Shown: positions 3 through 38,208 of the stretch, piece by piece | How the letters are laid out: every line of letters starts with the position of its first letter | Position numbering within the stretch: the stretch's first letter is position 1 | Notes under the pieces: model-generated | Database searches by the model: none | What the model was told of the DNA's origin: nothing | The model's input: only the letters and a program-made list of their open reading frames with translations | DNA from: a virus | Lineage: Duplodnaviria > Heunggongvirae > Uroviricota > Caudoviricetes | Direction: 5' to 3' (one strand) | DNA length: 38,208 nt | Virus record (IMG/VR): IMGVR_UViG_3300029705_000040 | Coordinates: 1-38,208 of that record | Position numbers and translations under genes: made by a program

Positions 3-602
3 GGGGGGGCAATAACCCCTGATGAACCTGATGAACCTACTGTAGCAGAGGTGTCTGATTTAACCGAAGTTTCTGCACTTGAGGATGGCACTTCTTTTAT
101 CTTCTCTGGAGAATGCTATGTAGTTGCTGTTAAGGGTAATTATGCATTATTGTGCGATGCTACTGGTTATGCTACAGTTTATATGAATGGTGGGTTACCA
201 GAAGAGTTTACTACTTAGGGATAGGTTATAACAGATTTTACTGGTACTGTTAAACTATACCATGATGGAGTGCAGTTAACAAACATTAATGATATCGGTT
301 ATGATGATTATTTAGTTGAAGTAAATCCTTACGAAATAGCTACAATATAGGATGCTCCAGGTTACTATATCGTTAAAGGTATATCAATAGAAGAGTATGA
401 TGATACTTATTACATTGCAAATCTTGATGGTGAGCCACTGCTGTATATTCCTAGAGAGGATAATTATGAGATAGCGCCAGGTCTTACCTATGATATTGTT
501 TTCGCTCAAATGTATTATAGTTCTAGATATTCTTATCCACTTAGCATAAACTCGAATCAAATTTATCTAGAGTCTATTACAGAATGTGAAGGGATAGAAT
601 AA
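3..602 (+). CDS. 3' part of a surface/virion protein (Pro/acidic linker then OB-fold-like beta domain), open only with TAG read-through; 5' truncated at a poly-G run
   Basis: Frame 3 reads GGAITPDEPDEPTVAEVSDL...EGIE to TAA 600-602, with TAG at 216, 222 and 348 and no TAA/TGA before the end. The fold assignment is inference. Confidence 0.75.
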
Positions 603-4975: not shown

Positions 4976-6039
4976 AAGCGTAAACTACAGCTCATCTAAA
5001 ATCTTTTGAACCTCGCTCGAGGGTGTTTAATATTACTAAATGGGTAGAACCTTAAATATTTTTAATTAAAGGTTATGCTAAATTTATTGATAATATTTTG
5101 CTAACGGTTAGGTCCAGACATCCTGGATGAGACCGTGCTAAGCGGGTGAGGATAGATTTGGTTATATACAAAATAACATGTTTAAAAAATAATAAAATTT
5201 ATATAGGTCAAACAAAAAATACATCTAGAAGACGTTTCGAACATCATGTTAAAGGTGCCTTAACAAATGATTTAGATACGCATTTAGCTAGAGCTATAAG
5301 AAAATATGGTCCAGAAAACTTTATTTTAGAAGATATAGATTTTGCTGAAAATCAAGAAGATTTAACTGAAAAAGAGTATTATTGGATAAATTTTTATGAA
5401 AGCTTTAAGCCAGATATTGGTTATAATGAGACAAATAATAAAAATAAATGCGGCGGAAATACATATAAATTTAAAAGTATTGAAGAAATGCAGAAAATAA
5501 AACGTAAAATCTCAAAAGCAAATTCTGGTTCTAAAAATGGTATGTCAAAAGGTGTTAAATGTAAAAACACAAAAAGCGGAGAAGAATTTCATTTTGGTTC
5601 GACCGCGGAATGTGCTAGGTTTTTTGGTACATATGTAACTGGTTTTATAAGAAAACGCTGTTGTGGTTACAATTACCTATATAAAAATACCTGGGCTTTT
5701 GCTTGGGAAGATGATCAATTTCTTTTAGAATATGAGAATTTTGATCCATCTACTAGAAAAGGAATAAAAGTTTAGCTTTTAAATTTAGAAACAAAAGAGG
5801 TATATACTTTTAATAGTAAAAGTAAAGCAGCAAAATTTCTAAATGTTGAGTTAGCAATTATTAAACATGATATTATTGTAAATAATTATAGAATATCTAT
5901 TCTCAACTGAAAGTGTATCGACTATTCCTGATGAGTTTAAGGAAGTAGGATTGGAGATAAGCACCAATCCGAAGCGGAAGACTACTTATAATAAAAGTAG
6001 AAGATATAGTCAGTGCTAACAGTAATGTTAGATAAAATG
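4976..6039 (+). mobile_element. Group I intron (1064 nt) in nrdD
   Basis: Exon ends in U; GATGGGT pairs with the internal guide GCTCATC giving a U.G pair at the splice site; S element AAGATATAGTC 6001-6011; terminal G6039; splicing restores STMG|CRTANG in frame. Confidence 0.92.
5146..5910 (+). CDS. Intron-encoded GIY-YIG homing endonuclease with NUMOD/IENR-like DNA-binding repeats (254 aa with TAG 5773-75 read as Gln)
   Basis: IYKIT...IYIGQT motif; read-through adds a second repeat (KGIKVQLLNLETKEVYTFNSKSKAAKFLN) matching the first (KGVKCKNTKSGEEFHFGSTAECARFFG); TGA 5908-10. Confidence 0.88.
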
Positions 6040-7014
6040 TGTAGAACAGCGAATGGTTATGATATAAACGGCTTTGCTCAACTAAAAGACGGTAGAGGAA
6101 ACATAGCACCTACTACTATAATTCTTCCAACATTAGCTATGGAAGCAGAGAAAGATGTTAAGAAATTTATGCGCCTTTTGAGAATTAAGTTAGAAGAAGC
6201 GAAAGATTCTTTAATTGATAGATTCGAATGGATTTCAAGTCAATCATCAGATTCTGCAAAATTTATGTATGAAAATGGAACTATGGAAGGTTACATTCCG
6301 AAAGAAGGAATTAGATCAGCATTAAAACATGGTACTTTAGCTATCGGTATGTTAGGTATGGCTGAGACTTTAGAATTATTAGTTGGTTGTAATCATACTA
6401 AACCAGAAGGAATGAAACTAGCAAAGAGAATTTGTTCCTTATATAAACAAAAATGTGCTGAGTATAAAGAAACATATAAGCTTAATTTTGGCGTATATTA
6501 CACACCAGCTGAGAATCTTTGTTATACTGCAATGAATAAATTTGTAGAAGCTTATGGTGTTATTCCTAAAGTTTCAGATCATGAGTATTTTACAAATTCT
6601 ATCCACGTACCAGTTTGGGAAGAAATAGATGCTTTTGAAAAAATAAGAATTGAAAGTGAGCTTACTGGATATAGTTCAGCTGGTTGTATAACATATACTG
6701 AGTTAGATGCATCTGTAGCAAAAAACATAGATGCTTTAGAAGATTTAGTTAATTTTGCTATGGATCATGATATCCCGTACTATGCGATTAATGTACCGGT
6801 AGATCAATGTATGAGTTGTGGCTATCAAGCAGAAATTACAGAAGATATTTGTCCTAAATGCGGTAGTACAAAAATACAGCGATTGAGACGTGTGACAGGT
6901 TATTTGACAGGTTCCTATAAAGATTCTTTCAATTATGGTAAGCAGAAAGAAACCGAAGCTAGGGTAAAACATACAGGTATTTCTGTATTAAAAGATAGCG
7001 AGGATAATGCTTAA
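6040..7014 (+). CDS. nrdD: Class III ribonucleotide reductase, exon 2
   Basis: CRTANG, GRGN, TPAENL, YFTNSIHVP, CxxC-CxxC zinc site, glycyl-radical motif RRVTGYL. Confidence 0.93.
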   Translation, partial: CRTANGYDINGFAQLKDGRGNIAPTTIILPTLAMEAEKDVKKFMRLLRIKLEEAKDSLIDRFEWISSQSSDSAKFMYENGTMEGYIPKEGIRSALKHGTLAIGMLGMAETLELLVGCNHTKPEGMKLAKRICSLYKQKCAEYKETYKLNFGVYYTPAENLCYTAMNKFVEAYGVIPKVSDHEYFTNSIHVPVWEEIDAFEKIRIESELTGYSSAGCITYTELDASVAKNIDALEDLVNFAMDHDIPYYAINVPVDQCMSCGYQAEITEDICPKCGSTKIQRLRRVTGYLTGSYKDSFNYGKQKETEARVKHTGISVLKDSEDNA

Positions 7015-10501: not shown

Positions 10502-10870
10502 ATGTTTGAAGATATTATATTAAAAACTGAACAGCATCTAATTTTTGTAGATCCTAACTGGACCTTCTTTTGGATTTTTGTTGTAGGCATCTCCATTTTA
10601 GGCTTTTTATCATTTGTGTTCGCATTCAAAAATCTTTTTTTGAAGAAAATGAATATGCTTTTAACAAGTTTAGGCTGCACTGTTATGATGAGTCTAATAA
10701 TCTGTGTATTAGGTTATTTTATTGCAACAGTTCCATATGTAGGTACCCCACACTATGAAAATTACTACCATGTAGAAGCAGAAAAATTTTATGTCTATGA
10801 AGAAAGAGATGAGTACGAGATTGTTCGACAGGAAGATAAAATATTAGTTGTAAGAGAGAAAACAGATTGA
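10502..10870 (+). CDS. Two-TM membrane protein, paralog of 25818 and 26209
   Basis: Two hydrophobic helices, then the C-terminal motif YEIVRQEDKILVVREK. Confidence 0.7.
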   Translation: MFEDIILKTEQHLIFVDPNWTFFWIFVVGISILGFLSFVFAFKNLFLKKMNMLLTSLGCTVMMSLIICVLGYFIATVPYVGTPHYENYYHVEAEKFYVYEERDEYEIVRQEDKILVVREKTD

Positions 10871-11409
10871 TGTTTTTAGATTATAATCTTATAGATAAAA
10901 ATATAGAAGAAAAATCTGGAATATACATCTTTTACAGAGAGTAGGAAGGTTTTAAGTTCGCTTATGTTGGCTAGTCTATAAATTGTAGAAATAGAATAAT
11001 TTAGCATCTCAAGGGCTACGATCAGCATATAGATTTAAGTATTCGTAAACATGGATTGTATTCCGAAGAAAATCTAACTGGATATAAAGTAACTATAGCT
11101 GAATATTGCAATGAAGATGTATTAGATGAAAAAGAATTATTCTATTGCAAAAAATGGGCTAATGAAGGATATCAACTTAGAAACACTACTAGCGGAAGTT
11201 AGGGTCCAGGAAAGTTTGGTATAAACCCTAATAAATCCAGTAAGGGTTATCGAGATGGAGTTGCTTATGGTTATAAAAAAGCACAAAAAGAAATAAAACA
11301 TCTTTTTGAAAAGCATTTAGAGGTATCGATAAAGGGTAAGCCTAATAAAAATAAACAAAAAGCTTTAGATAAATTTAATACATTTATAGATAATACCACA
11401 GGAAATTAA
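10870..11409 (+). CDS. Free-standing GIY-YIG nuclease (179 aa), absent from the ORF track because of 4 in-frame TAG
   Basis: ATG overlaps the upstream TGA; SGIYIF...YVG[TAG]S...RII[TAG]HLKGYDQHID...RNTTSGS[TAG]G; TAG at 10942, 10972, 11002, 11200; TAA 11407-09. Confidence 0.88.
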
Positions 11410-17703: not shown

Positions 17704-17857
17704 AAATACTACAGTAAAAGAAATTCACGATATTTGCTTGAAACATCAAAAACAAAATAGAGATTGCGAATCATGTCCTATCTATAGATTTTGTATGCAA
17801 ATGACTATTAGTTACCCTAGTGGTTGGAAATTGGAGGTGGAACATGCTGAAAAGTAA
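17690..17857 (+). CDS. Small Cys-cluster protein (55 aa, not in ORF track)
   Basis: GTG start; C...CESCPIYRFC. Confidence 0.6.
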   Translation: MKVTENTTVKEIHDICLKHQKQNRDCESCPIYRFCMQMTISYPSGWKLEVEHAEK

Positions 17858-18245
17858 TGCATTAAAAATATTAGCTTTATAGAACATCGCTAGTGCGCAA
17901 AATAATAATGCTTCGGCCACTAGAGGTTTAGCTAGAGAGCAAAGCAAAACAAATGAGTTATTGCAAGAGCAGTTAGAAGTAAAAGATCGAGTAGATATAT
18001 CTATGCGAGAATATCAAGATCTTAAACATATAGAATCTTGCTTTCATGCTTATAGAGATATATTTAGTAATATACTAGCTAAAACTGATTTGAAACCAGA
18101 AGAACTTGCTACTGCTATGAAAAAAGAAGTGTCAGTTAGCTTCGATGAAAATCCAGCTGATTTAAGCATGCGATTACATATAGCATTAAACTTAGATATA
18201 CCAATATTTAGAATGCGAGAACTTTTAGAGAAAAATCGATTATGA
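17844..18245 (+). CDS. Hypothetical protein, 133 aa with TAG 17880-82 read through
   Basis: GGAGGTG RBS before ATG 17844, in frame with the ORF track fragment 17961-18245. Confidence 0.75.
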
Positions 18246-23221: not shown

Positions 23222-23665
23222 ATGGAACAAATAAGTTCAAGAAAACCTGTAGCTAGAAAAGAATATTGCTGTGATTATTGTAGAGATAAAATTAAAAAGG
23301 GACAGCGTTATTATAGAAGCTTTTGGAAAGATGATGTAGCTTATGAGTGGATAGCTCATCTAGAATGTCAATTTATAGTTAATGAGCTCTGGGATTATTA
23401 TGATCCAGATTATGGTGTTGACTCAGAAAATTTTGGAGAAATGTGTCATGATTTCTGTCAGAATTTTATTTGCCCTGCTTGCGAATATTGGGATAAAGCG
23501 TATGACGAATGCAGCGAAGATAAATGCTACATAGAATGTTTTGATAAAATTGTAGAAACATTAAAAAAGAAATACATAAAGTATATACCAAAGCAACCTG
23601 GCGACTGGTTTGGACAATATATTTTAGTAGATAGAGAGAAGGTGATTGAAAATGTCTAGATATGA
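23222..23665 (+). CDS. Cys-rich zinc-binding protein (ARKEYCCDYC)
   Basis: The only clear + strand gene whose standard-code stop is TAG (23657-59) without a long read-through; TGA follows two codons later at 23663-65. Confidence 0.7.
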
Positions 23666-25817: not shown

Positions 25818-26201
25818 ATGTTACCTGGCGTTATAATATTAGATTCTTATCAGTATGTAAGCGAATATAGTGCATTTAAAACAGGTCCGTTTTTGTTAAC
25901 CTGCTTAGCTATATTCTTAGGTTGGATTATTCTAATTTTCGCCATATTAATCGGTTTGGATGGCAACTTTTCTAGTCTAAAAGATTCTTTTGTTTGGTTT
26001 TTTACTTTATTTGCTTCTTTTTTAATGACAATATTTATGGGAGCTCTGGTTAGTCTATGTTTTCAAGGCGATCCTATTGAGTATACCACTGTTTATAAGG
26101 TAACTACAATGGATACTGTAAATGTGAATGATTTTACTGATATGTATGAGATAATCGAAGTAGAAGGTAAAATCTATACTGTAAAGATAAGAGAAAAATA
26201 A
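25818..26201 (+). CDS. Two-TM membrane protein (paralog family with 10502 and 26209)
   Basis: C-terminal YKVTT...YEIIEVEGKIYTVKIRE. Confidence 0.7.
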   Translation: MLPGVIILDSYQYVSEYSAFKTGPFLLTCLAIFLGWIILIFAILIGLDGNFSSLKDSFVWFFTLFASFLMTIFMGALVSLCFQGDPIEYTTVYKVTTMDTVNVNDFTDMYEIIEVEGKIYTVKIREK

Positions 26202-26208
26202 ACAGGAA

Positions 26209-26604
26209 GTGTTGATAATGGAAGGTGTTATTGAGATTAGTAAAGAAGCTATATATGGTTGCTGGCAATATGCTTACATATTTGGTATTATTAGCTTTTT
26301 TATCTTTAGTTGTATTTTTACTTATACCATTATAAAGAATAAGAAATCTGGTGTTATTTATGATTGCAAGAATGTACTGCTGACTATTATTCTTTATATT
26401 TTAGGAGCTATAGCTTCATGCATGGTTGTTATTTTAGCGGACTGTTTTGGTAAATTATTAGATGAGAAGAATTGCCCCGTTTTGTATTATGAGTATACTG
26501 TTAAAATTACTGATGACGTTGATTTTGGTAAATTTAAAGATACATATAAAATATTAAGAGAAACAGAAGATAATACATATATTGTTATTTTGAAGGAAAA
26601 TTGA
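26209..26604 (+). CDS. Two-TM membrane protein (paralog family with 10502 and 25818)
   Basis: C-terminal YTVKITDDV...YKILRETEDNTYIVILKE. Confidence 0.7.
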   Translation: MLIMEGVIEISKEAIYGCWQYAYIFGIISFFIFSCIFTYTIIKNKKSGVIYDCKNVLLTIILYILGAIASCMVVILADCFGKLLDEKNCPVLYYEYTVKITDDVDFGKFKDTYKILRETEDNTYIVILKEN

Positions 26605-26607
26605 TCT

Positions 26608-27111
26608 ATGTTTAGTGTTAGAAAAAATACGTTTGAAACAAATAGCTCTAGTACGCATTGCTTATGTTATGAAAAATCTGTAGAGCTCAAATCTGAAGAT
26701 CTAGAAAAATTAAAAGAAGCTTATATAATTAAACCATATACGCAAGAAGAAATAGATGATGTTATGGAAATTACATCTATAAAAGATAAGTTAAGATATT
26801 TCTACACTTTGTACATACAGGCTAATCATACTAGCAATAAATTTATGAGAAAGCTAAAAAATATTGTACCAAATGTTATTTTTAGTGAAGAATTTCCAGA
26901 TGAGACTTATATTCTTGAAGATGGGGACAGCTTTATGGAAGGTGGTTACTTTGCTACAGCAGAATATGAGATATTAACAGATGACTTGCTCACTAAACTT
27001 TTATTATATGGAAAAATCTATTTTGGTGATAGAGATAGAGAATCTTATTCGGATAAAGTATATGGCATCGAGCATAGTGATGCTTATTTTTCCATGGTTT
27101 GGAGCGGTTAA
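26608..27111 (+). CDS. Phage protein of the FETNSSS family
   Basis: MFSVRKNTFETNSSSTHCLC. Confidence 0.75.
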   Translation: MFSVRKNTFETNSSSTHCLCYEKSVELKSEDLEKLKEAYIIKPYTQEEIDDVMEITSIKDKLRYFYTLYIQANHTSNKFMRKLKNIVPNVIFSEEFPDETYILEDGDSFMEGGYFATAEYEILTDDLLTKLLLYGKIYFGDRDRESYSDKVYGIEHSDAYFSMVWSG

Positions 27112-27230
27112 TTTATTTATTTTATAAAATTACAGACTTAAATTATAAATTATATCAGCAAAACAATAAAAAATCAAAAACAGATAACTGTATATAATAG
27201 AGAAGATAATCAAATCTTCTCTATTTTTAT

Positions 27231-27321
27231 TGCCCCTTAGGTTAATGGTAAACCGCCGGTCTCTAAAACCGTTATACTCTCTGAAAGGGTAATCTGGGTT
27301 CGAATCCCAGAGGGGTAGCCA
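27231..27321 (+). tRNA. Amber suppressor tRNA (anticodon CUA) with long variable arm
   Basis: Acceptor TGCCCCT/AGGGGTA, G73, CCA; D stem GGTT/AACC; loop CT-CTA-AA (27263-65); ~20-nt variable hairpin; T arm CTGGG-TTCGAAT-CCCAG. Confidence 0.88.
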
Positions 27322-27325
27322 ATAC

Positions 27326-27403
27326 TGGGGATTAGCATAACGGCTATTGTGCGGCGGACTCTAAATCCGTTTTGAGCTGGGTCGGCACCAGCATCCCCCG
27401 CCA
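27326..27403 (+). tRNA. Amber suppressor tRNA (anticodon CUA), tRNA-Gln-derived
   Basis: Acceptor TGGGGAT/ATCCCCC, G73, CCA; anticodon arm GCGGA-CT CTA AA-TCCGT (27361-63), close to Firmicute tRNA-Gln ACGGA-CT TTG AC-TCCGT; atypical T loop GTCGGCA. Confidence 0.88.
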
Positions 27404-27438
27404 ACTTAAAAATAATTAACTTTCCGGAGGCTCTTATT

Positions 27439-27906
27439 TTGAAACTATTTAGAAATTTCAAACTTTGTAGAGAAACTAGAAAAGAAATAAAGCAAGCAGA
27501 AAAAGAAAAGAAAAGATGTGCAAAAAAATATTCTGATTGGAAAGATGATGAGTATAACTGCGGTCCACTTAAATTTATTTGGGGATTAAAATCTTACGAT
27601 GACCTATCTTCTTGCGATGTTAATTTTTATTCTATGAACGATATAGATGTATATTTCAATAGGGATACTCAAAAATATATTTTAGGTATTGAAACTATCT
27701 TTAAGTTTGAAAGTCAAGATCATAGAATAAAATATCTAGAAAGATTATTAAAAGCATTTAAAGAATATATGAGTGGTAAATTTGATAGTACTTTTGACCC
27801 ACACAACTTATATTTATATAATGATGGTAATTTTTTTCAAGCAAGTAGTTTGACAGAGCTTTATTATAAATTTGAAATATTTGTGACTGGTTATAGTCAA
27901 CTTTAA
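27439..27906 (+). CDS. Hypothetical protein
   Basis: 155 aa; TTG start after GGAGG. Confidence 0.7.
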   Translation: MKLFRNFKLCRETRKEIKQAEKEKKRCAKKYSDWKDDEYNCGPLKFIWGLKSYDDLSSCDVNFYSMNDIDVYFNRDTQKYILGIETIFKFESQDHRIKYLERLLKAFKEYMSGKFDSTFDPHNLYLYNDGNFFQASSLTELYYKFEIFVTGYSQL

Positions 27907-28008
27907 TTCTTTAGAGGTAAGCTTATTAAATTTAATCTTTAAGTTAGATTTAGTACAAAAGCTATGCTAAATTAAATAGATAATCTTTAATATGCTTAAA
28001 ATATTTAT

Positions 28009-28380
28009 ATGAGAACATTTGAGTATTTTTTCACTAGACAAGCAGTTGGAGAGTTAGAAGTAGAAGATATGGGTAATTGCTGTATCGAAGCCACTAACGA
28101 TCAAGGTATGCTTTATTATTTAGTAACTGATACGAAATTAGGCTAGACTAGAATTTTTGAGTATGGTCCAGCTATACCTGATTTTGATGAGTTACCAAAA
28201 AGTGTTTATTGCGCTTTTTCTAGAATAGAATATGATGAGCGTAAACTTACAAAAAAGATTTCAGAATTTCTTAATAGTCCTACTCGAGAGATTACGCAAG
28301 CTTTCGAAGTTGATAGAGATATTTGTTTCTCTAATTGTAAATGTATAAATGACTATATGGAAAATAAAGAAAACTTTTAA
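28009..28380 (+). CDS. Hypothetical protein, 123 aa with TAG 28144-46 read through (not in ORF track)
   Basis: MRTFEYFFTRQ...KLG[TAG]TRIFEYG...KENF, TAA 28378-80. Confidence 0.75.
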
Positions 28381-28394
28381 GGGTTATAAATTAT

Positions 28395-28598
28395 ATGGCT
28401 AAACAGTATATTAAAGATTTTTACGGTCGAGTAATAGGATCTTTGGAAGAATTATCAAACGGAGATATTATTGCTAAAGACTTTCATGGTAGAGTAAAAG
28501 GTAAATACAGAAAATCAGATAACACAACTAGAGATTTTCATGGTAGAGTTGTTGCTAAAGGAAATCAAGTTGGAATGTTAATAACATCTGATAGATAA
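28395..28598 (+). CDS. Small protein with three (K/R)DF(Y/H)GRV repeats
   Basis: KDFYGRV, KDFHGRV, RDFHGRV. Confidence 0.8.
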   Translation: MAKQYIKDFYGRVIGSLEELSNGDIIAKDFHGRVKGKYRKSDNTTRDFHGRVVAKGNQVGMLITSDR

Positions 28599-28649
28599 AA
28601 TCAGGGGAGAATCTATTAGCTACCCCGTTAATGAGGAATTTATAAAGAC

Positions 28650-31010
28650 ATGGCTGGAAATAATGTAATACAGATACTCAGGGGTACTAGAGATGAGATC
28701 GCTTCTAACAAAAATAAAGATGTGATGCTCAACGAAGGTTAGCTTCTTTATAATCTTACAGATAATTATCTTACCTGTGGTGGTGAAAATGGTAGTAAGT
28801 TAACTAGCCTACCAGTAACTACTAGAAGTATGTCAGGTCATTATGATGATTAGATAATGGGAATATTGCCATCTAATTGCCTTGATGGATCTGTTGATAA
28901 ATACAGAGTGGGCCCAGTAGTAACACCAACTAGAGTAGAGTATGATGAGAATGGCGATCCTATAAAAACTTATTATGACTCAAAATTTGAAATAGATTCT
29001 GCTTTAGGATCAAAAATTATCTTAGGCTCAGATTTTATTAAGTTATCTTTAAGTGATGGTAAACATGTAACACTAAATTCTTCAGGTTTTTCATCATCAA
29101 GTGGATCATCTGCTAGCTCAGTAAACGCAACAGATTTATCAGCATCTTCTGCAAATATTGGTGGAGCACTTACTTCGAGAAGCATAAGTGTTGGTGGAAC
29201 TAAGACTTATTTATCCGCTAACGGTAATGCTGTAACTTTAAGAAATGCTAAAAAGATTCTATTAGATGGTGAAAATGGTACTATAGAGCAAAAAGCAAGC
29301 AGCATAACTCAAGAAGCCATAGTATTAGATTCTAAAGTTGCTGTTATTAATTTCAATTCGCAAGTAGAGATTGGAACTACTGCTGCTAGATTAAATCTAA
29401 AATTCGCTAAACCAACTAATATAGATGGGAATATTAATTTTACTGGAAAAGTAACATCATCTTACACACCTAGAGATGAGAATGATGTAGTAAGACTTAA
29501 AGATTTAGGTGTTAATATAGATTAGTTGCAAGATTCTATCGATGGAATTGTTATTCCAGATAAATCTTCTTCATCTGCAGTAAGTGATTCTGTAGTTGTA
29601 ACTGAGTCAGATTTAGATGATCAATATTCTGTTATTATAAGTACTGCTGGTGAAAAATCAGCTTTATCAGCTACACCTAAAAATTTAGTATCTATAAATC
29701 CTAAAAATGGTAGAATGACTGCTGGTAGATATACTGTGAGCACAGCAGATCAGCAAGTTGAAAGAGATAATGCACACGGTATAAATTTAAATAACTCTGA
29801 TGCAATAAACGCTCATGCTATACACTTTAATAACACTGGAAATTATGGTTTAACATTCTCTAGTAAGAATGATCGCTTTTATGTAGATAGAGGCACTGCT
29901 TTTATCTAGACTAAAAATGATAAAAATGAAACTATAACTAAAACACTTCTTACTCAAGAAGGTGGTGATATAACAACCCTTAATATATAGAATGATTTTA
30001 CCGTTGGCGGTAAATTGACTGTTAATGGAAGCTTTCAACCAAATAAACTAGTTATAGCTGGTGCTAATTAGCATGTGCGTGATGGTGCTAAATCTTATGG
30101 TTTCTATGCAAATAATTCTGATATTGATGGTGTATATAATATAAGGTTTGAGACACATGCAGATAACCCAGATCAAGGTATCTTATTCTAGAATCGTGAT
30201 TTTGATAATCAATATTATAGATTAGCAGCTGAGACATCAAATACAGGACCTAAGTTATATTTAAGTACTGTAAAGTATGATGAAAGTGGTAAAAAAGTTA
30301 TTGGTGTTGGAACTAATGATTCTCATGTAAAATACGAAGTTATAACATCTAAAGGTGGATAGACTATAGGTGATGGAACTACCACAAACAATCTTTAGAT
30401 GTTTACAGTAAACGGTCACCAAACAGTAACAAAGACCTTAACAGCAAACAAAGCTTCTTTAACAGATTTATCTGTTAGCGGCGGTGCTGTAAGCATTAAG
30501 AATAAAAGCAATAAAACAGGTGAAATAGTCTTAACAGATGGAAGTGTTACTGCTAAAACTATAACTGCTACTGATACTATAAAATCTAATAAAAATATAA
30601 TAGCCAGCGGTGATATTACAGGTAACGTATTGCAGACTAGTGGTTCTCATAATGTAGTTATCGATGGTAATACAGGTAATATTTCCGGTGCTTATCTAGA
30701 TGGTACAGCAAATTATGCTAAACACTTAGCGCCTGGAGCCGTTAAATTAGGCCTTCTTCCTGAAGGCACCTATACAGGTAACGATCCAAACACTTTGTAT
30801 ATTTTAGTATGTAAATCTAGCGATGGCAAATCGAATTGCACATTTAAGTCTAAGTATGCTTATGATTATTGCTATATAAGAATATCTTCCGATGATGATC
30901 ACAACAAAGAGGACGCTGGAAGCATGAGTGCTGGAACTGAGTTAAAAATACATAATGATACAAATGATGATTGGATACATACTTGGTTGTATGTATACAC
31001 TAAAAATTAA
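28650..31010 (+). CDS. Tail fibre / receptor-binding protein (786 aa) with Mtd_N-like N-terminus; one gene with 9 in-frame TAG
   Basis: GAGGA RBS, ATG 28650; TAG at 28740, 28851, 29523, 29907, 29988, 30069, 30189, 30360, 30396; joins track fragments 28857, 29526 and 30399 in one frame; IQILRG...EG-LLYNLT N-terminus; beta-helix-like body; DVVRLKDL motif. Confidence 0.85.
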
Positions 31011-31047
31011 AAAAAAAATAAAAATTTATATATAGGAGTAAAAATCT

Positions 31048-32387
31048 ATGAGTAATAACAAATCTATTTAGTTACTCAGGGGCTCAGATACTAGTATCAA
31101 AGCCTCAACAGACACTTTGCTCCCCGGTCAACCTCTCTACAACTTGACTACAAAAGAGTTTTACGTAGGGGGGGGGGCAACACCACTATTAAAAGTCTTA
31201 CAGGTATAACAGCCAATAAGACAAAAAATGCTCTAACATTTAGCTCGGCAGGCTCTGGAGCATCTAGTGGAACAACTTTTGATGGAAGCACAGCAAGAAC
31301 TATAAGTTACAACACAATTGGTGCTGCTGCAGCTTCTGATGTGCAATATGCTATAAATAAAGATAATTATTTGGTAATCTATACAAATAAAAATTCTCAA
31401 TCAACTAGCAATATCGTTTATACTAATTATCCAGTATACACAATTACTTTTAACGCTGGGAGTAATGGTACCTGCTCAACATCAAGCAAATAGACTGTTT
31501 TAGGTTATTTATCAAGCACACCTAGTGTAACAGCTAATTCTGGTTATACATTTAAGGGTTGGTATACATCAAGCAGCGGTGGTACTCAAGTAACTACTAG
31601 CTATAAGTTTACAGGTAATGCAACTGTTTATGCTCAGTATACAGCAGCATCTACAACAACATATAAAGCTACATTCTATACAGATGGTGGATCTGTTTCA
31701 CCTAGTTATGTATCAGCTAATTCTAGCAACTATTTAGATGCTTCTACCTTACCTATACCAACAAAATCTGGTTATGCGTTTGGTGGTTGGTACCTTGATG
31801 CTTCTTATTATAACCAATTTACTTCTAGAACATTAACTAGCGATATAACTCTATATGCGTACTGGATTGATTCTAGCAGTTACGATTGGTTTGGTCCAGT
31901 AAATCCTTCTGGTGGATTTGTAGCGTTGAGAAAACCTATAGATGCGTCCGATGATTATTATGCGTTCGCACCAGTTTTAAATGATGAGTATGATAGTCCA
32001 GCTAACTACATAGCATATGGTCAGTGGCAAGAAGAAAATCAACAGCTATATTTTAATCCGGAAGATGCATTTACTGATGCAGATACATGGTCTGGTGAAA
32101 TCTATATCGGTGTTCAGAGTGAACAAGGTATCTTCATACCTGCAAATTGTGTTAACAGTTCATGCCTTCCAGATACTAACTATAATTTAAATGATGGAAA
32201 TACTAATTATGACAATGGTTGGGCTACCCTTGAGTTTGAACATCTTCCTGGTGTTATTTGTCCAGCAGATGAGGGTATTGCTGAAATTACAGGTGTTGCC
32301 GCTACTACAATTGTTATAGATAGAAATTCTATGTGTGCTGGCGATTGCGGCGGTGATGGTAGTGAAATATGGCACGATATATCTTAA
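31048..32387 (+). CDS. Tail fibre/adhesin with Mtd_N-like N-terminus and two Listeria-Bacteroides (InlB B-type) repeats; frameshifted at a G10 tract (446 aa if G11)
   Basis: AGGAG RBS, ATG 31048; TAG at 31069 and 31491; GYTFKGWYT...TVYAQY and GYAFGGWY...TLYAYW repeats; with G10 (31168-77) the start frame stops at TAA about 30 nt downstream. Confidence 0.8.
31168..31177 (+). repeat. Poly-G tract (G10) in the coding sequence
   Basis: GTA GGGGGGGGGG CAAC in an AT-rich genome. Confidence 0.9.
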
Positions 32388-32397
32388 TTTAATTTAT

Positions 32398-32427
32398 AAA
32401 GACTTTAGATTTATTTCTAAAGTCTTT
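32398..32427 (+). terminator. Intrinsic terminator after the fibre genes
   Basis: AAAGACTTTAGA-6 nt-TCTAAAGTCTTT followed by T-rich run. Confidence 0.85.
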
Positions 32428-32436
32428 TCTTTTTAG

Positions 32437-32465
32437 TTGATTTATAAATGAAAATATTATATAAT
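32437..32465 (+). promoter_or_regulatory. Phage promoter AG-TTGATT-N17-TATAAT
   Basis: Exact 17-nt spacer. Confidence 0.85.
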
Positions 32466-32528
32466 TATAATGTAGATAAGAAATCTAATCTCATTTATAC
32501 ATAACTAAATATAAGTGAGGTATTTATA

Positions 32529-32771
32529 ATGGAACAAATTAACCCTAAGTATGAGATTGGAACAAAAATTATCTACAAACAAAAGAAATATGCTATTGCT
32601 GATCATGTATATTATAAAAGTAATGATACATGGTACTATTGGTTGAGAGGTGTTATCAAAAAATCTAGACTAGGAATACCCGAATGGATTTATATAAATG
32701 ACGCTAAACAAATTTTAATAAATAGGATTGATTCTGATACTTCTATTAAAATAATTTCAGAAACAGCATAA
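32529..32771 (+). CDS. Hypothetical protein
   Basis: 80 aa; GAGG RBS. Confidence 0.7.
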   Translation: MEQINPKYEIGTKIIYKQKKYAIADHVYYKSNDTWYYWLRGVIKKSRLGIPEWIYINDAKQILINRIDSDTSIKIISETA

Positions 32772-32777
32772 AATTAG

Positions 32778-32806
32778 TTGATTTATTAATTAATTTATTA
32801 TATAAT
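32778..32806 (+). promoter_or_regulatory. Phage promoter AG-TTGATT-N17-TATAAT
   Basis: Exact 17-nt spacer. Confidence 0.85.
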
Positions 32807-32838
32807 ATAAGTGTAGATTAAAGATGGAGTGATAGTAT

Positions 32839-33027
32839 ATGGAAAAGCTTGATCATTTCGAACTTATGTTAGTAAAAGGTTGTGTAGTATCTGAAATCAG
32901 ACAGCTCGAAGAATTAAATGCTGAAATTGATAGCAAAAAATCACCATCAACTATAGATTTAGTTAACTATGCTTATAATAAAGAATATATTGAAAAATAT
33001 CAAAAAATTATTCAAAAATTAAGTTAA
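32839..33027 (+). CDS. Hypothetical protein
   Basis: 62 aa; GGAG RBS. Confidence 0.7.
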   Translation: MEKLDHFELMLVKGCVVSEIRQLEELNAEIDSKKSPSTIDLVNYAYNKEYIEKYQKIIQKLS

Positions 33028-33033
33028 AAACAG

Positions 33034-33062
33034 TTGATTAAATAATCAAAATATTATATAAT
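33034..33062 (+). promoter_or_regulatory. Phage promoter AG-TTGATT-N17-TATAAT upstream of the ncRNA/tRNA block
   Basis: Exact 17-nt spacer. Confidence 0.85.
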
Positions 33063-33097
33063 ATATAATGTAAATAGAAGTTATAGAGGTCATTGAT

Positions 33098-33268
33098 ATG
33101 GATAAAAAGCAAATGTTAAAAGACGGTTTGAAAAAGAAAACAGTGTATTTACTTGTTGGAAAAGATATCAATGGAAAAGAGCATTTCACAGTAATAGAAG
33201 ATTTAGAAATGGCTAAGCTTTATAAAACTAGTGAAAATGTTCGACCTATAACGATGTTTATGAAATAA
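33098..33268 (+). CDS. Small hypothetical protein (56 aa, not in ORF track)
   Basis: GAGG RBS; MDKKQMLKDGL...ITMFMK. Confidence 0.65.
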   Translation: MDKKQMLKDGLKKKTVYLLVGKDINGKEHFTVIEDLEMAKLYKTSENVRPITMFMK

Positions 33269-33274
33269 GCTAAA

Positions 33275-34325
33275 TAAACGGTGCCACGAAGCCAAAGCGT
33301 TCGCGATATAGATGTTATTAAATCTCTCAAAAACGGATCTGGGAAGAAAGCAGCTGTGGTAAATGGAATGAGATAAACAGCCGTTATTAAAACTCAAATA
33401 TAATCAATGACGCCTCGGAAAGACGAGCATTAACTGGTTGGGTAGTTAGGTCATCATCTCTCAACTTGAAATGACCAGATTTGTTTATATTTGAGTAACA
33501 ATTTAATTGAACACTGTAGTTTAACAGCAGCAAGTCGTAAACACCTCATCTAGAAAGGGGAGAAGTGGTTTCGGTAGATGGTAAGTGCAATTCACCACTA
33601 GTTAGTTCAATTAACAATAAAAACCTAGGTATTCAAAACGTAGAGTAAAATCCGCGTGGAGGAAGGTCAGACATTTCTAATTCAAGTGCACAAAGGATTA
33701 GAAGTGAGTTGTTGTCAGGACATTTAGTTATTAGTCCTATCCGTATGAGACAATGAGGTTATCCCCGAAGGATAACTGACGGTGAAAAAGTTGAGTAGAC
33801 CTTTAATCGAAAGATGAAATAACTGCTTATATATAATATTGTACTGAAGTTCACAAATCGATTCTCAGCAAAATGTGTATCTGAAAGATGGTAAATTGTG
33901 ATAGTACACTACTTCGGCGAGTACAATATTTTGGTGCGGAATAAAGAGTTGATTTACATGTCCGCGAAAGTCAACCACCTTTAGAAATTAGTCGTGTAAG
34001 GCATTATACGGCGCGTAGTAATTATTGATGTGGTAGGTCCGTTGAAAGATTACGGCACCCATCAAGCGGGGCGTGTATGAATGATATAGTCGCTAAGCCC
34101 CGCGGCGACATAATTAATGTAACGGTCAATAAATACTAATTGTTAACCGTGGTTAGTTGCAGAGAGGATAGATGCTCAGTGGAATAGTTGTGAAATATCA
34201 ATTCTACCTCTTCAGAGTTTAATTAAGGACTGACGTTACTTTTGGAAACGACACAAAGGCGTACAGACTAAACCAACGAGAAGGGTTTATCCGTAACTGG
34301 ACAACACGTTAGAAATTGTCCGTAT
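33275..34325 (+). ncRNA. Candidate large ornate ncRNA (GOLLD/ROOL-like); boundaries approximate
   Basis: About 1 kb with no plausible ORF and higher GC; perfect long-range stems 33392-402/33486-96, 33503-12/33605-14, 33835-45/33920-30; GAAA-capped hairpins; abuts the tRNA array. Confidence 0.65.
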
Positions 34326-34329
34326 ATAC

Positions 34330-34405
34330 TCCAGGGTGTTAGCAATGGTAGCTGGCGAGGTTCATACCCTCGAGGTTGTGAGTTCGAGTCTCACCCCTGG
34401 GCCCA
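34330..34405 (+). tRNA. tRNA with CAU anticodon (Met or Ile2), atypical C73
   Basis: CGAGG-TT CAT AC-CCTCG; T arm GTGAG-TTCGAGT-CTCAC; encoded CCA. Confidence 0.8.
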
Positions 34406-34408
34406 AAT

Positions 34409-34486
34409 CACTTACTCGACTAACTGGTAAGTCGTCCGCTTGAGCGCTGCGGAGGTTAGAGGGTTCAAGTCCCCTGTAAGTGGCCA
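34409..34486 (+). tRNA. tRNA-like gene with 9-nt anticodon loop (TTGAGCGCT); identity unassigned
   Basis: Acceptor CACTTAC/GTAAGTG, G73, CCA; D stem GACT/AGTC; stem TCCGC/GCGGA. Confidence 0.7.
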
Positions 34487-34655
34487 TTTAAGGTAAGGCC
34501 TTCTCTAACAGGTAGACTTTAAATTAGTTAGAGTCAAGCGTTTCTCGATATCGTATAAAGAATCGAGCTTTAATTTGTTATCTTAATACGCTTGTTGGTT
34601 CGTATTTATTTAACTTAATCTATGTATTGTTTAACTGGATAATACATAGATACAT

Positions 34656-34738
34656 GGGTAGCATGGCGAAATCTAGAAGACGCGAGGGTCGCTCCCTTAC
34701 CGAAAGGTGTGTAGGTGCAAGTCCTGCTGTGCCCACCA
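34656..34738 (+). tRNA. Leu-type class II tRNA-like gene with 5-nt anticodon loop (TCGCT)
   Basis: GCG/CGC D stem, GAGGG/CCCTT stem, variable arm ACC-GAAA-GGT, T loop TGCAAGT, A73-CCA; bulged G in the acceptor stem. Confidence 0.65.
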
Positions 34739-34803
34739 TCAGATTTATAATCTGAAACCTCTTTTTATTTACACATTAATGGTAGTATTTTCTACCATTA
34801 TAT

Positions 34804-34873
34804 CTATGGATAGTCTAGCGGATAAGACGCTGGTTAAGAGCCAGTATCGCAGGTTCGAATCCTGCTCTATAGC
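34804..34873 (+). tRNA. tRNA-like gene with shortened anticodon arm (loop TAAGA), C73, no CCA
   Basis: Acceptor CTATGGA/TCTATAG; D stem GTCT/AGAC; T arm GCAGG-TTCGAAT-CCTGC. Confidence 0.65.
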
Positions 34874-35151
34874 ACGCTTATAACAGGTTGTAAAGGCCTA
34901 ACAACTTTAGAGGTAAGATGGCTGATTGAAAAAGATCAGCATACGTATCCTGAGTGCCCTTCGATTCGGTTCGACTCCAAACATTCGCATCGGAATAGCG
35001 AGAGGGTAGGTCACGAGAGTCGTAAGATAGTTCGAGTCTATCCCTCAAGTTTATCTTTTTACAATTACTAAATATGTGCTAAAATTATTGTATAATATAT
35101 TATATGATATAAGGAAACATATTTATGAGTGAGAAAAAAGATTAGAAATTA

Positions 35152-36006
35152 TTGAAAAAATATCTTCTTAAAAATGTTGAAAATGGATATGTACCATCAC
35201 CGGAAGATACTAGAGACTACACAATTAAAAATGTTGCTTTAGAAGAAACAGATGAAATACCTGAAACTTACATAAAGAAGGGTATGAAAGTACTTAGTCA
35301 AGGTAATGTTGGAAGTTGCGTTGCTCATGCTTGTGCCACTGCTATGGGGTATGGTGAGTTAGCTGGTGGTTTTGAAACTGCTCATGATTTCAGTAGAGGT
35401 TATATCTATGGTAATAGAGGTCCTGCTGATTCGCAAAGTGAAGGTATGTATATACGTCAAGCATTAAAACAGTTAAATAAATGTGGTGATGTTGAGTATA
35501 TAGATTTTCCGCTAAATGCTAAATATCCAGTAGTTAAAGCAGAAATAGAGAAGAATAAAGATGCTTTAGCTGAAAAAGCAGCTCAATTTAAAATAGTAAA
35601 TTACTTTAGATGCTATAGTGATGAGGAAGTTAAGAAGACTCTTCTAGCTCAAGGTGCCGTAGTTATAGGTATTCCTGTATATAGCTCATTTAAAGCGGAA
35701 TGTCCATTACCTGATGCTGATGATAAACGCACTGGTGGTCACGCTATGGTTGTTGTTGGTTGGGATGAAACAGGCTGGATTATACAAAATAGTTGGTCTA
35801 GCAGTTGGGGTAAGCAAGGATTTATGCATTTACCATACGATTATCCTATTGATGAGTTATGGGGAATAACAGTCAATAAAAATGTTCCACAACCTGAACA
35901 AAAATCAGCTACAGATAGAATTGTTGCTTTCCTCGCTTTCTATATTAAGTATCTATTAAGAGAAATTAAAAGATTTTTTTTACAAAAAATAAGTAAAAAT
36001 AGTTGA
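35152..36006 (+). CDS. Papain-like (C1A) cysteine peptidase
   Basis: SQGNVGSCVAHA (Gln/Cys), GGHAMVVVG (His), IQNSW (Asn), WGKQG. Confidence 0.88.
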   Translation: MKKYLLKNVENGYVPSPEDTRDYTIKNVALEETDEIPETYIKKGMKVLSQGNVGSCVAHACATAMGYGELAGGFETAHDFSRGYIYGNRGPADSQSEGMYIRQALKQLNKCGDVEYIDFPLNAKYPVVKAEIEKNKDALAEKAAQFKIVNYFRCYSDEEVKKTLLAQGAVVIGIPVYSSFKAECPLPDADDKRTGGHAMVVVGWDETGWIIQNSWSSSWGKQGFMHLPYDYPIDELWGITVNKNVPQPEQKSATDRIVAFLAFYIKYLLREIKRFFLQKISKNS

Positions 36007-36031
36007 TCTTTTGTATTAAATAATATATAAT
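36003..36031 (+). promoter_or_regulatory. Phage promoter AG-TTGATC-N17-TATAAT driving the second RNA block
   Basis: -35 overlaps the peptidase TGA stop. Confidence 0.85.
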
Positions 36032-36148
36032 ATAAATGTAAATTAAATATTTGAGTAGTGAGTATAAAGCTTTATTAAATAAGCTACACGTACAAATATG
36101 CTTACTAGTAGGTCCGTACAACCGAAAAAGCATATGTAGCAGGAATTA

Positions 36149-36221
36149 GGTGATCTGGTGTAATCAGGCAGCATGCTGGGCGGGACGCCCGGAGGAGCCG
36201 TTCAAATCGTGCAAGTCGCTG
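36149..36221 (+). tRNA. Degenerate tRNA-like gene (loop CGGGACG, no U33)
   Basis: Stem CTGGG/CCCGG, T loop TTCAAAT, imperfect acceptor stem, no CCA. Confidence 0.45.
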
Positions 36222-36393
36222 AATAAAAAGAGAAATTCCTTAAAATTGTTTAATAAGAAAAATATGCGTAAAATATTAATAGCAAGATAGTCACTTAAAA
36301 TTTAGATAATAGCAAGACTGTGAGTAATATGATGTACACATAAATCTCACCGCATATCCTAAAGATGAAAGTTCTTTAGCTCAAATATTATAT

Positions 36394-36482
36394 CACTGGA
36401 GGTTCGCTATAGGTAAGCGGAGCGTGCTGTGCACGTGAGTTGGTAGTAACAACTCTTATCGGTTCGAGTCCGATTCCGGTGC
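36394..36482 (+). tRNA. Class II-shaped tRNA-like gene, possible His identity (GUG in loop, C73), no encoded G-1 or CCA
   Basis: Acceptor CACTGGA/TCCGGTG; 6-bp D stem; loop CTGTG(CA); variable arm GAGTTG/CAACTC; T arm ATCGG-TTCGAGT-CCGAT. Confidence 0.6.
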
Positions 36483-36546
36483 AAACTGATATAGCCCGAC
36501 GGGGCTTGAGATTATGTTGACGCTGTGGAATTAGACACAGATGCAT

Positions 36547-36683
36547 CGGAACCTAGCTCAACCAGGTGAGAGCCCCGGTCTTACGTAGAGAAAGGAATCA
36601 GTTAGTTCAATTCTAACCCCTACGACCATAAACCGGAAGCCCTAGCAAGGTAAATCTGAGTTCGATTCTCAGGGTTCCGACCA
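36547..36683 (+). tRNA. Interrupted tRNA carrying a 45-nt mini-tRNA insert (36584-36628) in its anticodon loop
   Basis: Perfect acceptor CGGAACC/GGTTCCG, A73-CCA; D stem GCTC/GAGC; anticodon stem CCGGT/ACCGG flanks the insert; T arm CTGAG-TTCGATT-CTCAG. Confidence 0.8.
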
Positions 36684-36687
36684 AGAT

Positions 36688-36763
36688 GGGCCATTAGCGC
36701 AATGGTTAGAGCTCCCCGCTCATAACGGGGCGGTTCTCGGTTCGAGTCCGAGGTGGCCCACCA
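36688..36763 (+). tRNA. tRNA-Ile2 (CAU, lysidine type) or tRNA-Met
   Basis: Canonical 76 nt: GGGCCAT/GTGGCCC, CCCCG-CT CAT AA-CGGGG, A73-CCA; acceptor resembles bacterial Ile2. Confidence 0.88.
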
Positions 36764-36784
36764 CTTTTATTTGTAGGTGTTAGC

Positions 36785-37012
36785 ATGAAGAAAAACAATG
36801 AGTATAATCTTTTTAATGAAATTTTATACATGATTGATAATTGGTGTGATGATTCGATTAGCTTTATCAATAGAAATGATTTTATTGTGCAAGTACATAA
36901 TCAATGGTCAAGATATCAAGCCTATCCGAGAATGGTTTCGATTTCAAAAAAGAGTATTATAGTTGTTTGGTCAAACGAATTTAGAGATAAATATTTAAGA
37001 AACAAAAATTAA
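36785..37012 (+). CDS. Hypothetical protein
   Basis: 75 aa. Confidence 0.65.
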   Translation: MKKNNEYNLFNEILYMIDNWCDDSISFINRNDFIVQVHNQWSRYQAYPRMVSISKKSIIVVWSNEFRDKYLRNKN

Positions 37013-37021
37013 GGTGTAGTT

Positions 37022-37342
37022 ATGTTTCAAAATGTTGTTGTAGGATACCCTATCGTAGATCCTAAAGAACTCATTGCTTTAGACGATCAAGATTGGGAAT
37101 CAGAAAAACAGAATACATTATTTACAGATTCTAGATTTCTTCCAAATATATTAAAAGAAGCTGGTGTAGTAAAATCTACTAGTGAGGTTAGAAAAAATAA
37201 GCCTGAGTTAGTAATTACTCTAGATAAACCAGATTGTTTTATGCTTAAATATGGTAAGAAAAGAATTTATATAATAGTTGGTTTAGAAACACTCGAACAA
37301 AGAGATGCTTTAATTTTTGAGTTAGATAATAAAATTAGTTGA
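37022..37342 (+). CDS. Stand-alone protein resembling the S4-like C-terminal domain of TyrRS
   Basis: ILKEAGVVKSTSEVRK...LKYGKKRIYII. Confidence 0.6.
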   Translation: MFQNVVVGYPIVDPKELIALDDQDWESEKQNTLFTDSRFLPNILKEAGVVKSTSEVRKNKPELVITLDKPDCFMLKYGKKRIYIIVGLETLEQRDALIFELDNKIS

Positions 37343-37367
37343 TTTAATTGTTAAAAGATTATATAAT
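37339..37367 (+). promoter_or_regulatory. Phage promoter AG-TTGATT-N17-TATAAT
   Basis: -35 overlaps the TGA stop; exact 17-nt spacer. Confidence 0.85.
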
Positions 37368-37541
37368 ATAAATGTAATAAGAAGTTTTTAGATTCTATAT
37401 TATGCATTAAATTATTATAAAAACAGATAAAAATTAACGCTAAATTAAATATACTTTCCTGTATATATTATTAGTAGTTTAAAAATTTAATAATACAATA
37501 TCCTCGAGTGGTGGAATGGGTATTACATCATTCGATTAAAT

Positions 37542-37625
37542 CGCTCCGTGTCGGAACAGCAGACGAACTCGACTTAAAATCGAGCGCCCTTGAGCGTGTG
37601 GGTGCAAATCCCACCGGAGCGACCA
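37542..37625 (+). tRNA. tRNA-Leu (UAA)
   Basis: CGCTCCG/CGGAGCG, CTCGA-CT TAA AA-TCGAG, long variable arm, A73-CCA; T loop TGCAAAT. Confidence 0.88.
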
Positions 37626-37726
37626 ACAGTTCGGTAGCGAAAGAGTAATTAACTTTCGAGTAATACGCTGACCCGTAAGCGAACATTTTTATTATAAATT
37701 TCTTTTAGGTCAGGGGAGAAATATTA

Positions 37727-38208
37727 ATGTCTGAAAAGCGTAAAGTTTAGCAACCAAAAACACAATGCAATAAATGTGGTAGATTCATTACAAATGCTAA
37801 TTTTAAAAAACACTCCAATAGTTGCGATGGTATAATTAAAAATTATGCATCTAAATATGATTATATATCAAACTTGATATGTCCATTTTGTGATTGTAAA
37901 AAAGAAACTAGAAATAGCCTTATTCAACATATTGTTAGATGTCCTAAAAATCCAGATAGGAAAGATTGGGATAAATTAGGAAAATATTCAACAAAAAACC
38001 GAAGAGGATAGACTAAAGAAACTAACAATAACATTGCGTTAGTAACGCAAAAATTAGTAGAATCTTATAAAAATGGAACTAGAAAAAGCTAGCTAACCCA
38101 TGGAACTGTTACGAGTATTTATAAGGATCACAACGATCAAGAAATAGCTAAATATTTATCTTATATAAGTACTTTATCTGAGACATTACCTAAATACAAT
38201 AAAATAAA
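37727..38208 (+). CDS. Zinc-finger protein, possibly a homing endonuclease N-terminus; 3 in-frame TAG; 3' truncated
   Basis: GGAG RBS; CNKC...H...C, CPFC...H...CPKNPDR, G[TAG]TKET; TAG at 37748, 38009, 38090. Confidence 0.75.

Follow-up and report, generated by a model that had tools for sequence, protein, structure and literature searches.

TAG as a probable minor glutamine codon in a phage with two adjacent suppressor tRNAs of unlike design

The 38,208 nucleotides studied here (the window) are the first 38,208 bases of a 164,204-base IMG/VR virus record, IMGVR_UViG_3300029705_000040 (GC 31.7%, 35 tRNA genes), and carry two adjacent genes for suppressor tRNAs with a CUA anticodon. Comparison of the genes and tRNAs with those of relatives makes it very probable that this phage uses TAG as a minor glutamine codon, decoded by its two tRNA(CUA). 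The two tRNA designs differ, and each recurs in relatives. TAG recoding itself is already known for gut phages, and it is the paired suppressor designs that are worth following. CheckV completeness of the record is 76%, and a 213,578-base ENA contig (ena:ERZ27303204:k141_1116531) holds a 99% identical copy of a tRNA-adjacent gene, which puts the full genome at about 214 kb. Statements made below about the record refer to its 164 kb, ~76% of the genome.

Reading of TAG as glutamine

The behaviour of TAG was compared with that of the other stop codons by a read-through test, in which table-11 open reading frames (ORFs) of at least 120 codons were extended past their stop to the next stop of another kind. 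Past TAG, the median extension was 73 codons and the codon-usage score 0.35 per codon, against 0.52 for real genes; the controls gave 15 codons and a score of 0.08 for TAA, and 7.5 codons for TGA. With TAG taken as sense, a gene set filtered by codon score comprised 235 genes, closed by 171 TAA and 64 TGA. At most 125 in-frame TAG, in 65 genes, are found in this set, and 84 of them, in 42 genes, are credible internal codons, outside the first 30 and the last 10 codons of the gene. TAG occurs among the last 10 codons in just 3 genes, with a TAA or TGA behind each. Glutamine is otherwise encoded by 890 CAA and 236 CAG against some 84-125 TAG, so that TAG would be a minor glutamine codon. The gain in coding density looked for in a preliminary description of the window was observed, in that a sense TAG lifts ORF coverage from 0.74 to 0.84, but coverage is a weak test because taking TAA as sense also raises it, to 0.81.

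Within the window we counted 33 in-frame TAG in 14 ORFs, ~20 of them beyond doubt, so the 24 reported earlier for a list of named genes was of the right size. Seven of the eight genes then listed as open only with TAG as sense stand as such; the eighth, at 31048-32387, needs a frameshift as well. The terminal TAG at 23657 does have a TGA two codons on, at 23663-23665. The highest count is carried by a tail-fibre-like gene of 786 codons (28650..31010, + strand), with nine TAG at codons 31, 68, 292, 420, 447, 474, 514, 571 and 583. It could be argued that the TAGs are true stops, in genes that are split, decaying or occasionally read through, and that the tRNAs have another purpose; a few TAGs do lie near gene ends or starts, and one fibre gene is also frameshifted. 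Such a view has to face the nine TAGs inside this single gene, the coding signal that runs on past TAG, and the exchange of TAG with CAG and CAA described below. TAG positions are moreover kept in relatives with intact downstream sequence (11 TAG-TAG columns, at 70-98% identity). We consider it strongly disfavoured, with next to no chance of being correct.

Searching exhaustively with HMMER, we obtained 53 cluster representatives for the fibre protein of 786 residues, nearly all matching its N-terminal 70 residues only. At codon 31 (G[TAG]LLYN) glutamine was present in all 52 aligned proteins; the column at codon 68 was variable. Since the database searched includes proteins called with TAG as glutamine, codons were checked at the DNA level. 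The codon-31 column reads CAA in relative L128, CAG and CAA in two genes of relative L129, and CAA in two paralogues of the present phage. Conversely, the glutamine column of the I-Q-[IL]-LRG motif is CAG in the 28650 fibre gene, and TAG in the second fibre gene and in both L129 genes. A third fibre paralogue (genome 90273) has CAA at both N-terminal columns. The reciprocity between fibre N-termini pointed out earlier is thus exact: I[TAG]LLRG faces IQ(CAG)ILRG, and G[TAG]LLYN faces GQ(CAA)PLYN.

Codon exchanges were also seen elsewhere. Late proteins of the close relative L008, 93-98% identical to those of the phage, have CAG at two of its TAG sites, in proteins of 94-98% identity, and TAG at five others, together with one TAG where this phage has AAA. 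L127 (~50% identity) has CAA at one TAG position, and endonuclease homologues in L009 and L011 (~75% identity) show TAG versus CAG and CAA versus TAG. Swaps in the reverse direction, with CAG or CAA in this phage and TAG in the relative, involve L128, L129, L009 and L011. We pooled the TAG-versus-sense events for which the flanking 16 residues were at least 50% identical, and evaluated them with substitution frequencies that these alignments themselves supplied. Over 20 events (Q 8, K 3, N 2, V 2, one each of W, T, L, E and A, and no S), the log-likelihood was -49.6 for glutamine, -72.3 for lysine, -77.9 for glutamate and far lower for serine. Glutamine is therefore ahead of the next residue by 23 units. 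Within-genome paralogues, at 20-33% identity, gave only noise at TAG columns. The glutamine assignment of the preliminary description, and the check that it proposed by aligning homologues at TAG columns, are both upheld: the codon-31 column, the 20 events, the codon swaps in relatives and the tRNA anatomy agree.

Two suppressor tRNAs of different anatomy

ARAGORN called two tRNA(CUA) genes on the + strand, a long one of 91 nt (27231..27321, anticodon 27263-27265) and a short one of 78 nt (27326..27403, anticodon 27361-27363), separated by 4 bases. They score 56.2 and 33.1 bits, respectively, with the Rfam tRNA model (gathering score 29), both have a perfect 7-nt anticodon loop (U33, CUA, A37), and CCA is encoded by both genes. 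On these grounds the tandem CUA suppressors described earlier are real; what had been overlooked is that they are of unlike design, the first resembling a class II (serine-type) tRNA. CUA is the sole suppressor-type anticodon of the record, in which no TCA or TTA suppressor tRNA was found. Both tRNAs are conserved in L009 and L011, two relatives picked via a neighbouring 155-residue protein and not via the tRNAs; their stems have changed there in a compensatory manner, and the CUCUAAA loop is the same. Counting this window, 7 loci have a long and a short tRNA(CUA) close to each other. A pyrrolysine reading was considered and rejected: PylS has no match in the record, neither tRNA has a tRNA-Pyl body, which would show a 6-bp anticodon stem, a 3-nt variable loop and one base between acceptor and D stems (both have two bases at 8-9, and the variable regions are 5 or 21 nt), and TAG columns hold glutamine. 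The name 'tRNA-Pyl' is merely ARAGORN's label for a CUA anticodon.

The long tRNA has U1-A72, G2·U71, C3-G70 and G73, a D arm of class-I type (4-bp stem, 7-nt loop) and a variable arm of 21 nt. Its acceptor, D and anticodon stems carry compensatory changes in the L009 and L011 orthologues, and 19 of 22 pairs covary in a 30-sequence alignment of the class. The variable arm (27273..27293, + strand) forms a hairpin in which UACUCU pairs with AGGGUA around the loop CUGAA. The CUG at 27281-27283, followed by A, corresponds to the anticodon and A37 of tRNA-Gln(CUG). In L009 the arm reads UCCGG-UUCUGAC-CCGGA and in L011 UCCGC-CCCUGAA-GCGGA, so that the stems diverge and CUG-A is kept.

We then considered how widely this arrangement occurs. 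IMG/VR was scanned with a pattern that fixed the CUA anticodon loop and the T-loop and left 24-42 free bases between them; the arm itself was not selected on. By ARAGORN, the returned loci contain 43 distinct long-arm tRNA(CUA). YTGA is present in the variable region of 37 of them (32 CUG, 5 UUG), and in a further two the YUG is not followed by A. The 122 other long-arm tRNAs of the same loci (Ser, Leu, Tyr and others) include 2 with YUG-A (Fisher exact p = 4e-28); many long-arm tRNA(CUA) may share ancestry, so that 37 is not a count of independent events. RNAalifold, applied to 30 long-arm tRNA(CUA), predicted the extra hairpin with all three consensus pairs covarying. The key evidence for the arm is this loop conserved on diverged stems. 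None of the 37 YUG-A tRNAs has G-C or C-G at position 1:72, where U-A, A-U, G·U or mismatches are found, and 28 of them have G73. Our literature search found no paper describing an anticodon-like variable arm.

On bacterial genomes the same pattern returned mainly ~20 Sec-type tRNA(CUA) of Geodermatophilaceae, which gave no clue to the host. This conserved 96-nt Sec-like tRNA(CUA), found in Geodermatophilus, Modestobacter and Blastococcus (L136, L149, L161 and ~17 more loci), serves as a negative control: it is alike in having a long arm and a CUA anticodon, and differs by its Sec-type body, its G1-C72 pair and the lack of YUG-A in the arm of any of the ~20. In a separate observation on phage loci, long-arm tRNA-Ile(UAU) (for example L037:6110, L044:5346 and L122:4184) has GAU, the ordinary isoleucine anticodon, in the arm loop in 10 of 11 cases.

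The short tRNA is built on another plan. Its acceptor stem, UGGGGAU/AUCCCC, is that of the phage tRNA-Gln(UUG) (genome 49937-50012), and C in place of A at position 72 creates a U1·C72 mismatch, next to G2-C71, G3-C70 and G73. Three further short tRNA(CUA), from unrelated phage contigs, have UGGGG...CCCCC-G with C72 in common, and in all this combination is found in five other short phage tRNA(CUA). The T-loop GUCGGCA (T arm 27376-27392) lacks U54 and A58, unlike the normal T-loops of other short phage tRNA(CUA). This T arm is identical in L009 and L011, where acceptor and anticodon stems carry compensatory changes.

The odd T-loop and low tRNA score of the short gene raise the possibility that one tRNA does all the decoding, the other being an anticodon-nuclease decoy, a regulator or a primer, and the long-short pairs in 7 loci could likewise mean a division of labour. 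Both genes nevertheless have a perfect anticodon loop, an intact acceptor stem and an encoded CCA, and both covary across relatives like working tRNAs, so that we regard a single decoder as unlikely. A different possibility is that the long tRNA uses its CUG hairpin as anticodon arm, being a tRNA-Gln(CUG) that reads CAG, with a CUA hairpin inserted. The genome has no other tRNA-Gln(CUG), and the second hairpin of the L009 and L011 tRNAs is placed like a normal anticodon arm, 4 nt before the T arm, with a stem of 5 bp closing a loop of 7 nt (UUCUGAC or CCCUGAA). In the present phage the hairpin can form only a 5-nt loop (CUGAA), or else one of 7 nt in which CUG is shifted by one position; stems of the class frequently have just 3-4 bp, and it is the CUA arm that is canonical throughout and at the canonical distance from the D arm. 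This makes the inserted-hairpin interpretation very improbable. The long arm and G73 give the tRNA the look of a tRNA-Ser, which raises the question of a serine-type (class II) suppressor, TAG being read as serine or ambiguously as serine and glutamine. The 21-nt arm with its 6-bp stem and G73 are as in bacterial tRNA-Ser, and SerRS ignores the anticodon (PMC9976931). The data answer glutamine: serine occurs in 0 of the 20 TAG-versus-sense events and ranks far under glutamine, the D arm is class-I and the weak 1:72 pair is as in tRNA-Gln, the record has no SerRS-type gene, and SerRS recognition would give no reason for the conserved YUG-A of the arm loop. Serine at TAG thus seems hardly credible.

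Some observations do weigh against TAG being read as glutamine by both tRNAs. About one third of the counted TAGs lie within the first 30 or last 10 codons and may reflect wrong starts. The database behind the 52 of 52 glutamines was partly called with TAG as glutamine, so this figure is safe only where codons were checked (5 genes). The long tRNA departs from the E. coli glutamine set at 2:71 (G·U) and 3:70 (C-G); the short one, without U54 and A58 in its T-loop, reaches just 33 bits with the tRNA model; and the pair has no recognisable promoter of its own except a lone TATAAT.

Charging of the suppressor tRNAs

Glutamine identity in bacteria depends on G73, U1-A72, G2-C71, G3-C70, G10, U34, U35, G36, A37 and U38, and G36 aids binding and recognition by the glutaminyl-tRNA synthetase (GlnRS); activity losses reach 10^5-fold (PMC9976931). 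GlnRS tends to accept amber tRNAs through U35, and changes at 1:72 and 3:70 turn an amber tRNA-Ser into a glutamine acceptor; the U1-A72 pair is recognised, too, by GluRS2 and by the amidotransferase that serves the indirect pathway (PMC9976931). For recoded phages, suppressor charging was left unexplained, with the host GlnRS as a guess (Borges et al., 10.1101/2021.08.26.457843). A CUA anticodon necessarily loses G36. Both tRNAs accordingly have C34, U35, A36 and A37 instead of U35, G36 and A37, and the long tRNA shows CUG-A in its arm loop. Each combines a weak 1:72 position with G73 (U1-A72 in the long tRNA, U1·C72 in the short one); G2-C71 and G3-C70 are both found in the short tRNA, and are replaced by G2·U71 and C3-G70 in the long one.

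The RF2-like release factor or GlnRS that the preliminary description suggested searching for did not turn up: neither RF2, RF1 nor GlnRS is encoded in the record, which has no match to PF00472, PF03462 or PF00749 (release factor and GlnRS-GluRS genes) and no class IIb synthetase. Since no synthetase or release factor gene is present in these 164 kb, loading by the host is most likely. We propose that the two tRNAs are made, most likely, as one precursor, and that the host's own enzymes load glutamine on both. The short tRNA would offset the lost G36 via its U1·C72 mismatch, and the long tRNA via the extra hairpin, which repeats the glutamine anticodon CUG and the following A. Host GlnRS, or the GluRS/amidotransferase route, would then load glutamine efficiently. 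Both the role of the extra arm in charging and the charging enzyme are things that we infer from this anatomy. In its general form the proposal is tentative, and we would put it at somewhat under even chances: a widespread class of phage tRNA(CUA) may have an arm that copies the anticodon stem-loop of tRNA-Gln and supplies the G36 element for glutamine charging. Phage tRNA-Ile(UAU) with GAU arms seem to use the same trick.

A possible charging helper was also considered. The phage has a free-standing, TAG-free gene for a YqeY protein, a GatB tail-like tRNA-binding domain (64.8 bits; L251, genome 114762-115166). The family was found in 6 of 27 records with a YUG-A arm versus 3 of 23 others, so that no link was shown and the candidate was dropped. 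In a relative (L010:10509-10934) a YqeY gene adjoins the homologue of the window gene 27439-27906.

Gene order, kinship and relation to known recoded phages

The tRNA pair is located between two blocks that differ in their use of TAG. On its 5' side, 692-27111 holds nucleotide-metabolism genes, including a split NrdD, a Thg1-like gene and RNase H, and the credible TAGs of this region are confined to two inserted homing endonuclease genes. On its 3' side follow, in order, a TAG-free gene (27439-27906), the motif GCTAAATTA, a TAG-containing gene (28009-28380), the two fibre genes and the endonuclease-like gene at 37727. The pair is thereby placed at the border of the TAG-free block and the TAG-using fibre block. 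This layout fits the published early/late code-switch model, in which the suppressor supply gates late-gene translation; the fit is not proof of that model, and we infer the timing from gene order.

A 12-bp hairpin followed by a T-run (27196..27225, + strand), terminator-like, ends 5 bases before the first tRNA, and a perfect TATAAT at 27193-27198 overlaps its 5' foot. Judging by sequence, the hairpin might terminate transcripts arriving from upstream, and the TATAAT might serve the tRNA pair as promoter. The GCTAAATTA motif at 27966..27974 (+ strand) lies 43 bases before the first TAG-containing gene 3' of the tRNAs. Fifteen copies occur on the + strand of the genome, ~10 directly before TAG-containing genes and several before tRNAs; none of the 15 precedes the suppressor pair. 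Copies at genome 37439, 44058 and 49668 lie shortly before the tRNA genes Leu-UAA (37542), Trp (44127) and Thr-UGU (49689).

The remaining TAG-bearing genes of the window, all on the + strand, are as follows. The gene directly behind GCTAAATTA (28009..28380) has 123 codons, with TAG at codon 46. The second fibre-like gene (31048..32387), with Listeria-Bacteroides repeats, has TAG at codon 8 of its N-terminal frame and another in the 31341-32387 frame. The frame opened at 31048 stops at ~31207, and the body, up to 32387, is in the frame of 31050, so that a frame change is also required, near the G-run at ~31170-31185; a programmed frameshift, a pseudogene and a 1-base assembly error are the alternatives. 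A GIY-YIG/NUMOD1 homing endonuclease gene (5146..5910) has TAG at codon 210, and its Pfam NUMOD1 match (residues 207-234) spans this codon. It lies between the two ORFs, 3716-4999 and 6013-7014, into which nrdD, the gene for the anaerobic ribonucleotide reductase, is divided; this could be an intron or a split gene. A second GIY-YIG homing endonuclease gene (10867..11409) has 4 TAG, at codons 26, 36, 46 and 112; codon 36 is the one in the motif YVG[TAG]S, found as announced earlier. An open frame running off the window start (3..602) has 3 in-frame TAG. A 141-codon frame (17820..18245) has its one TAG close to the 5' end, and the need for a sense TAG there hinges on the start codon; a TAG-free start at 17961 would leave a 258-base gap. 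The endonuclease-like gene that begins at 37727 and passes the window end at 38208 to reach genome 38494 has TAG at codons 8, 95 and 122, and is a paralogue of genome 39741-40514 and 52925-53851. TAG density is highest in homing endonuclease genes (8 in 104204-105286, 6 each in 39741-40514 and 52925-53851, 4 in window gene 10867-11409), even where they are inserted in the otherwise TAG-free early region.

Neither a megablast of 26000-38208 nor a tblastn with a 747-aa structural protein found a match among 50,697 GenBank phage records, and single-protein searches of viral contigs returned no relatives for the gene 5' of the tRNA pair or for a 457-aa late protein. A metagenome scan for relatives gave one 6.8-kb contig. 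Late proteins were mostly without match in PHROGs and Pfam, so that no hallmark gene was usable. Five IMG/VR records with similar tRNAs lack the 445-aa structural protein of this phage; similarity of the tRNAs is therefore not genome kinship. By these comparisons the phage appears to add a TAG-recoded lineage without relative among GenBank phages.

Gut phages that read TAG as glutamine (code 15) and carry tRNA-Sup(CUA) include crAss-like, Lak, Garnet and others, and the earlier placement of this phage with them was right (10.1101/2021.08.26.457843; PMC9523058). Like them, it has low GC, suppressor tRNA(CUA) genes and presumably a standard-code host; TAG is used in structural and fibre genes and avoided in early-type genes, and the suppressors adjoin the recoded block. 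Unlike them, it has no RF2 or aminoacyl-tRNA synthetase in 76% of its genome, two distinct suppressor designs, TAG at its densest in homing endonuclease genes, and no GenBank phage match at the DNA or protein level. A phage RF2 or GlnRS is an optional trait, found in a minority of code-15 clades. The phAss-1/Phassvirus group, with genomes of 130-140 kb, ~40 TAG-containing ORFs, 2-3 tRNA-SUP-CTA, ~30 tRNAs and no dedicated synthetase, and with glutamine at TAG inferred from conserved glutamine columns in phAss-1 (PMC10607447), is comparable; no sequence relationship to it was found, and PMC10607447 gives no suppressor tRNA structure. Among cellular systems, E. coli supE (glnV44)-type and other Gln-mischarged amber tRNAs also combine CUA, a weak 1:72 pair and G73, and are charged by GlnRS via U35 and the acceptor end (PMC9976931). 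The supE type consists of single-base mutants of cellular tRNAs that are poorly charged, whereas the phage tRNAs add the U1·C72 mismatch or the CUG-A hairpin, features for which we found no describing paper in suppressor tRNAs.

One more recoded phage changes little, but the anatomy of its suppressors could matter. The CUG-A hairpin and the U1·C72 mismatch are concrete, conserved and mutable features. If the proposed reading of the arm is true, it would answer how stop-codon-recoding phages get their suppressors charged, and would represent a new way of moving a tRNA identity element away from the anticodon. Such a portable second-site anticodon determinant would interest suppressor-tRNA engineers.

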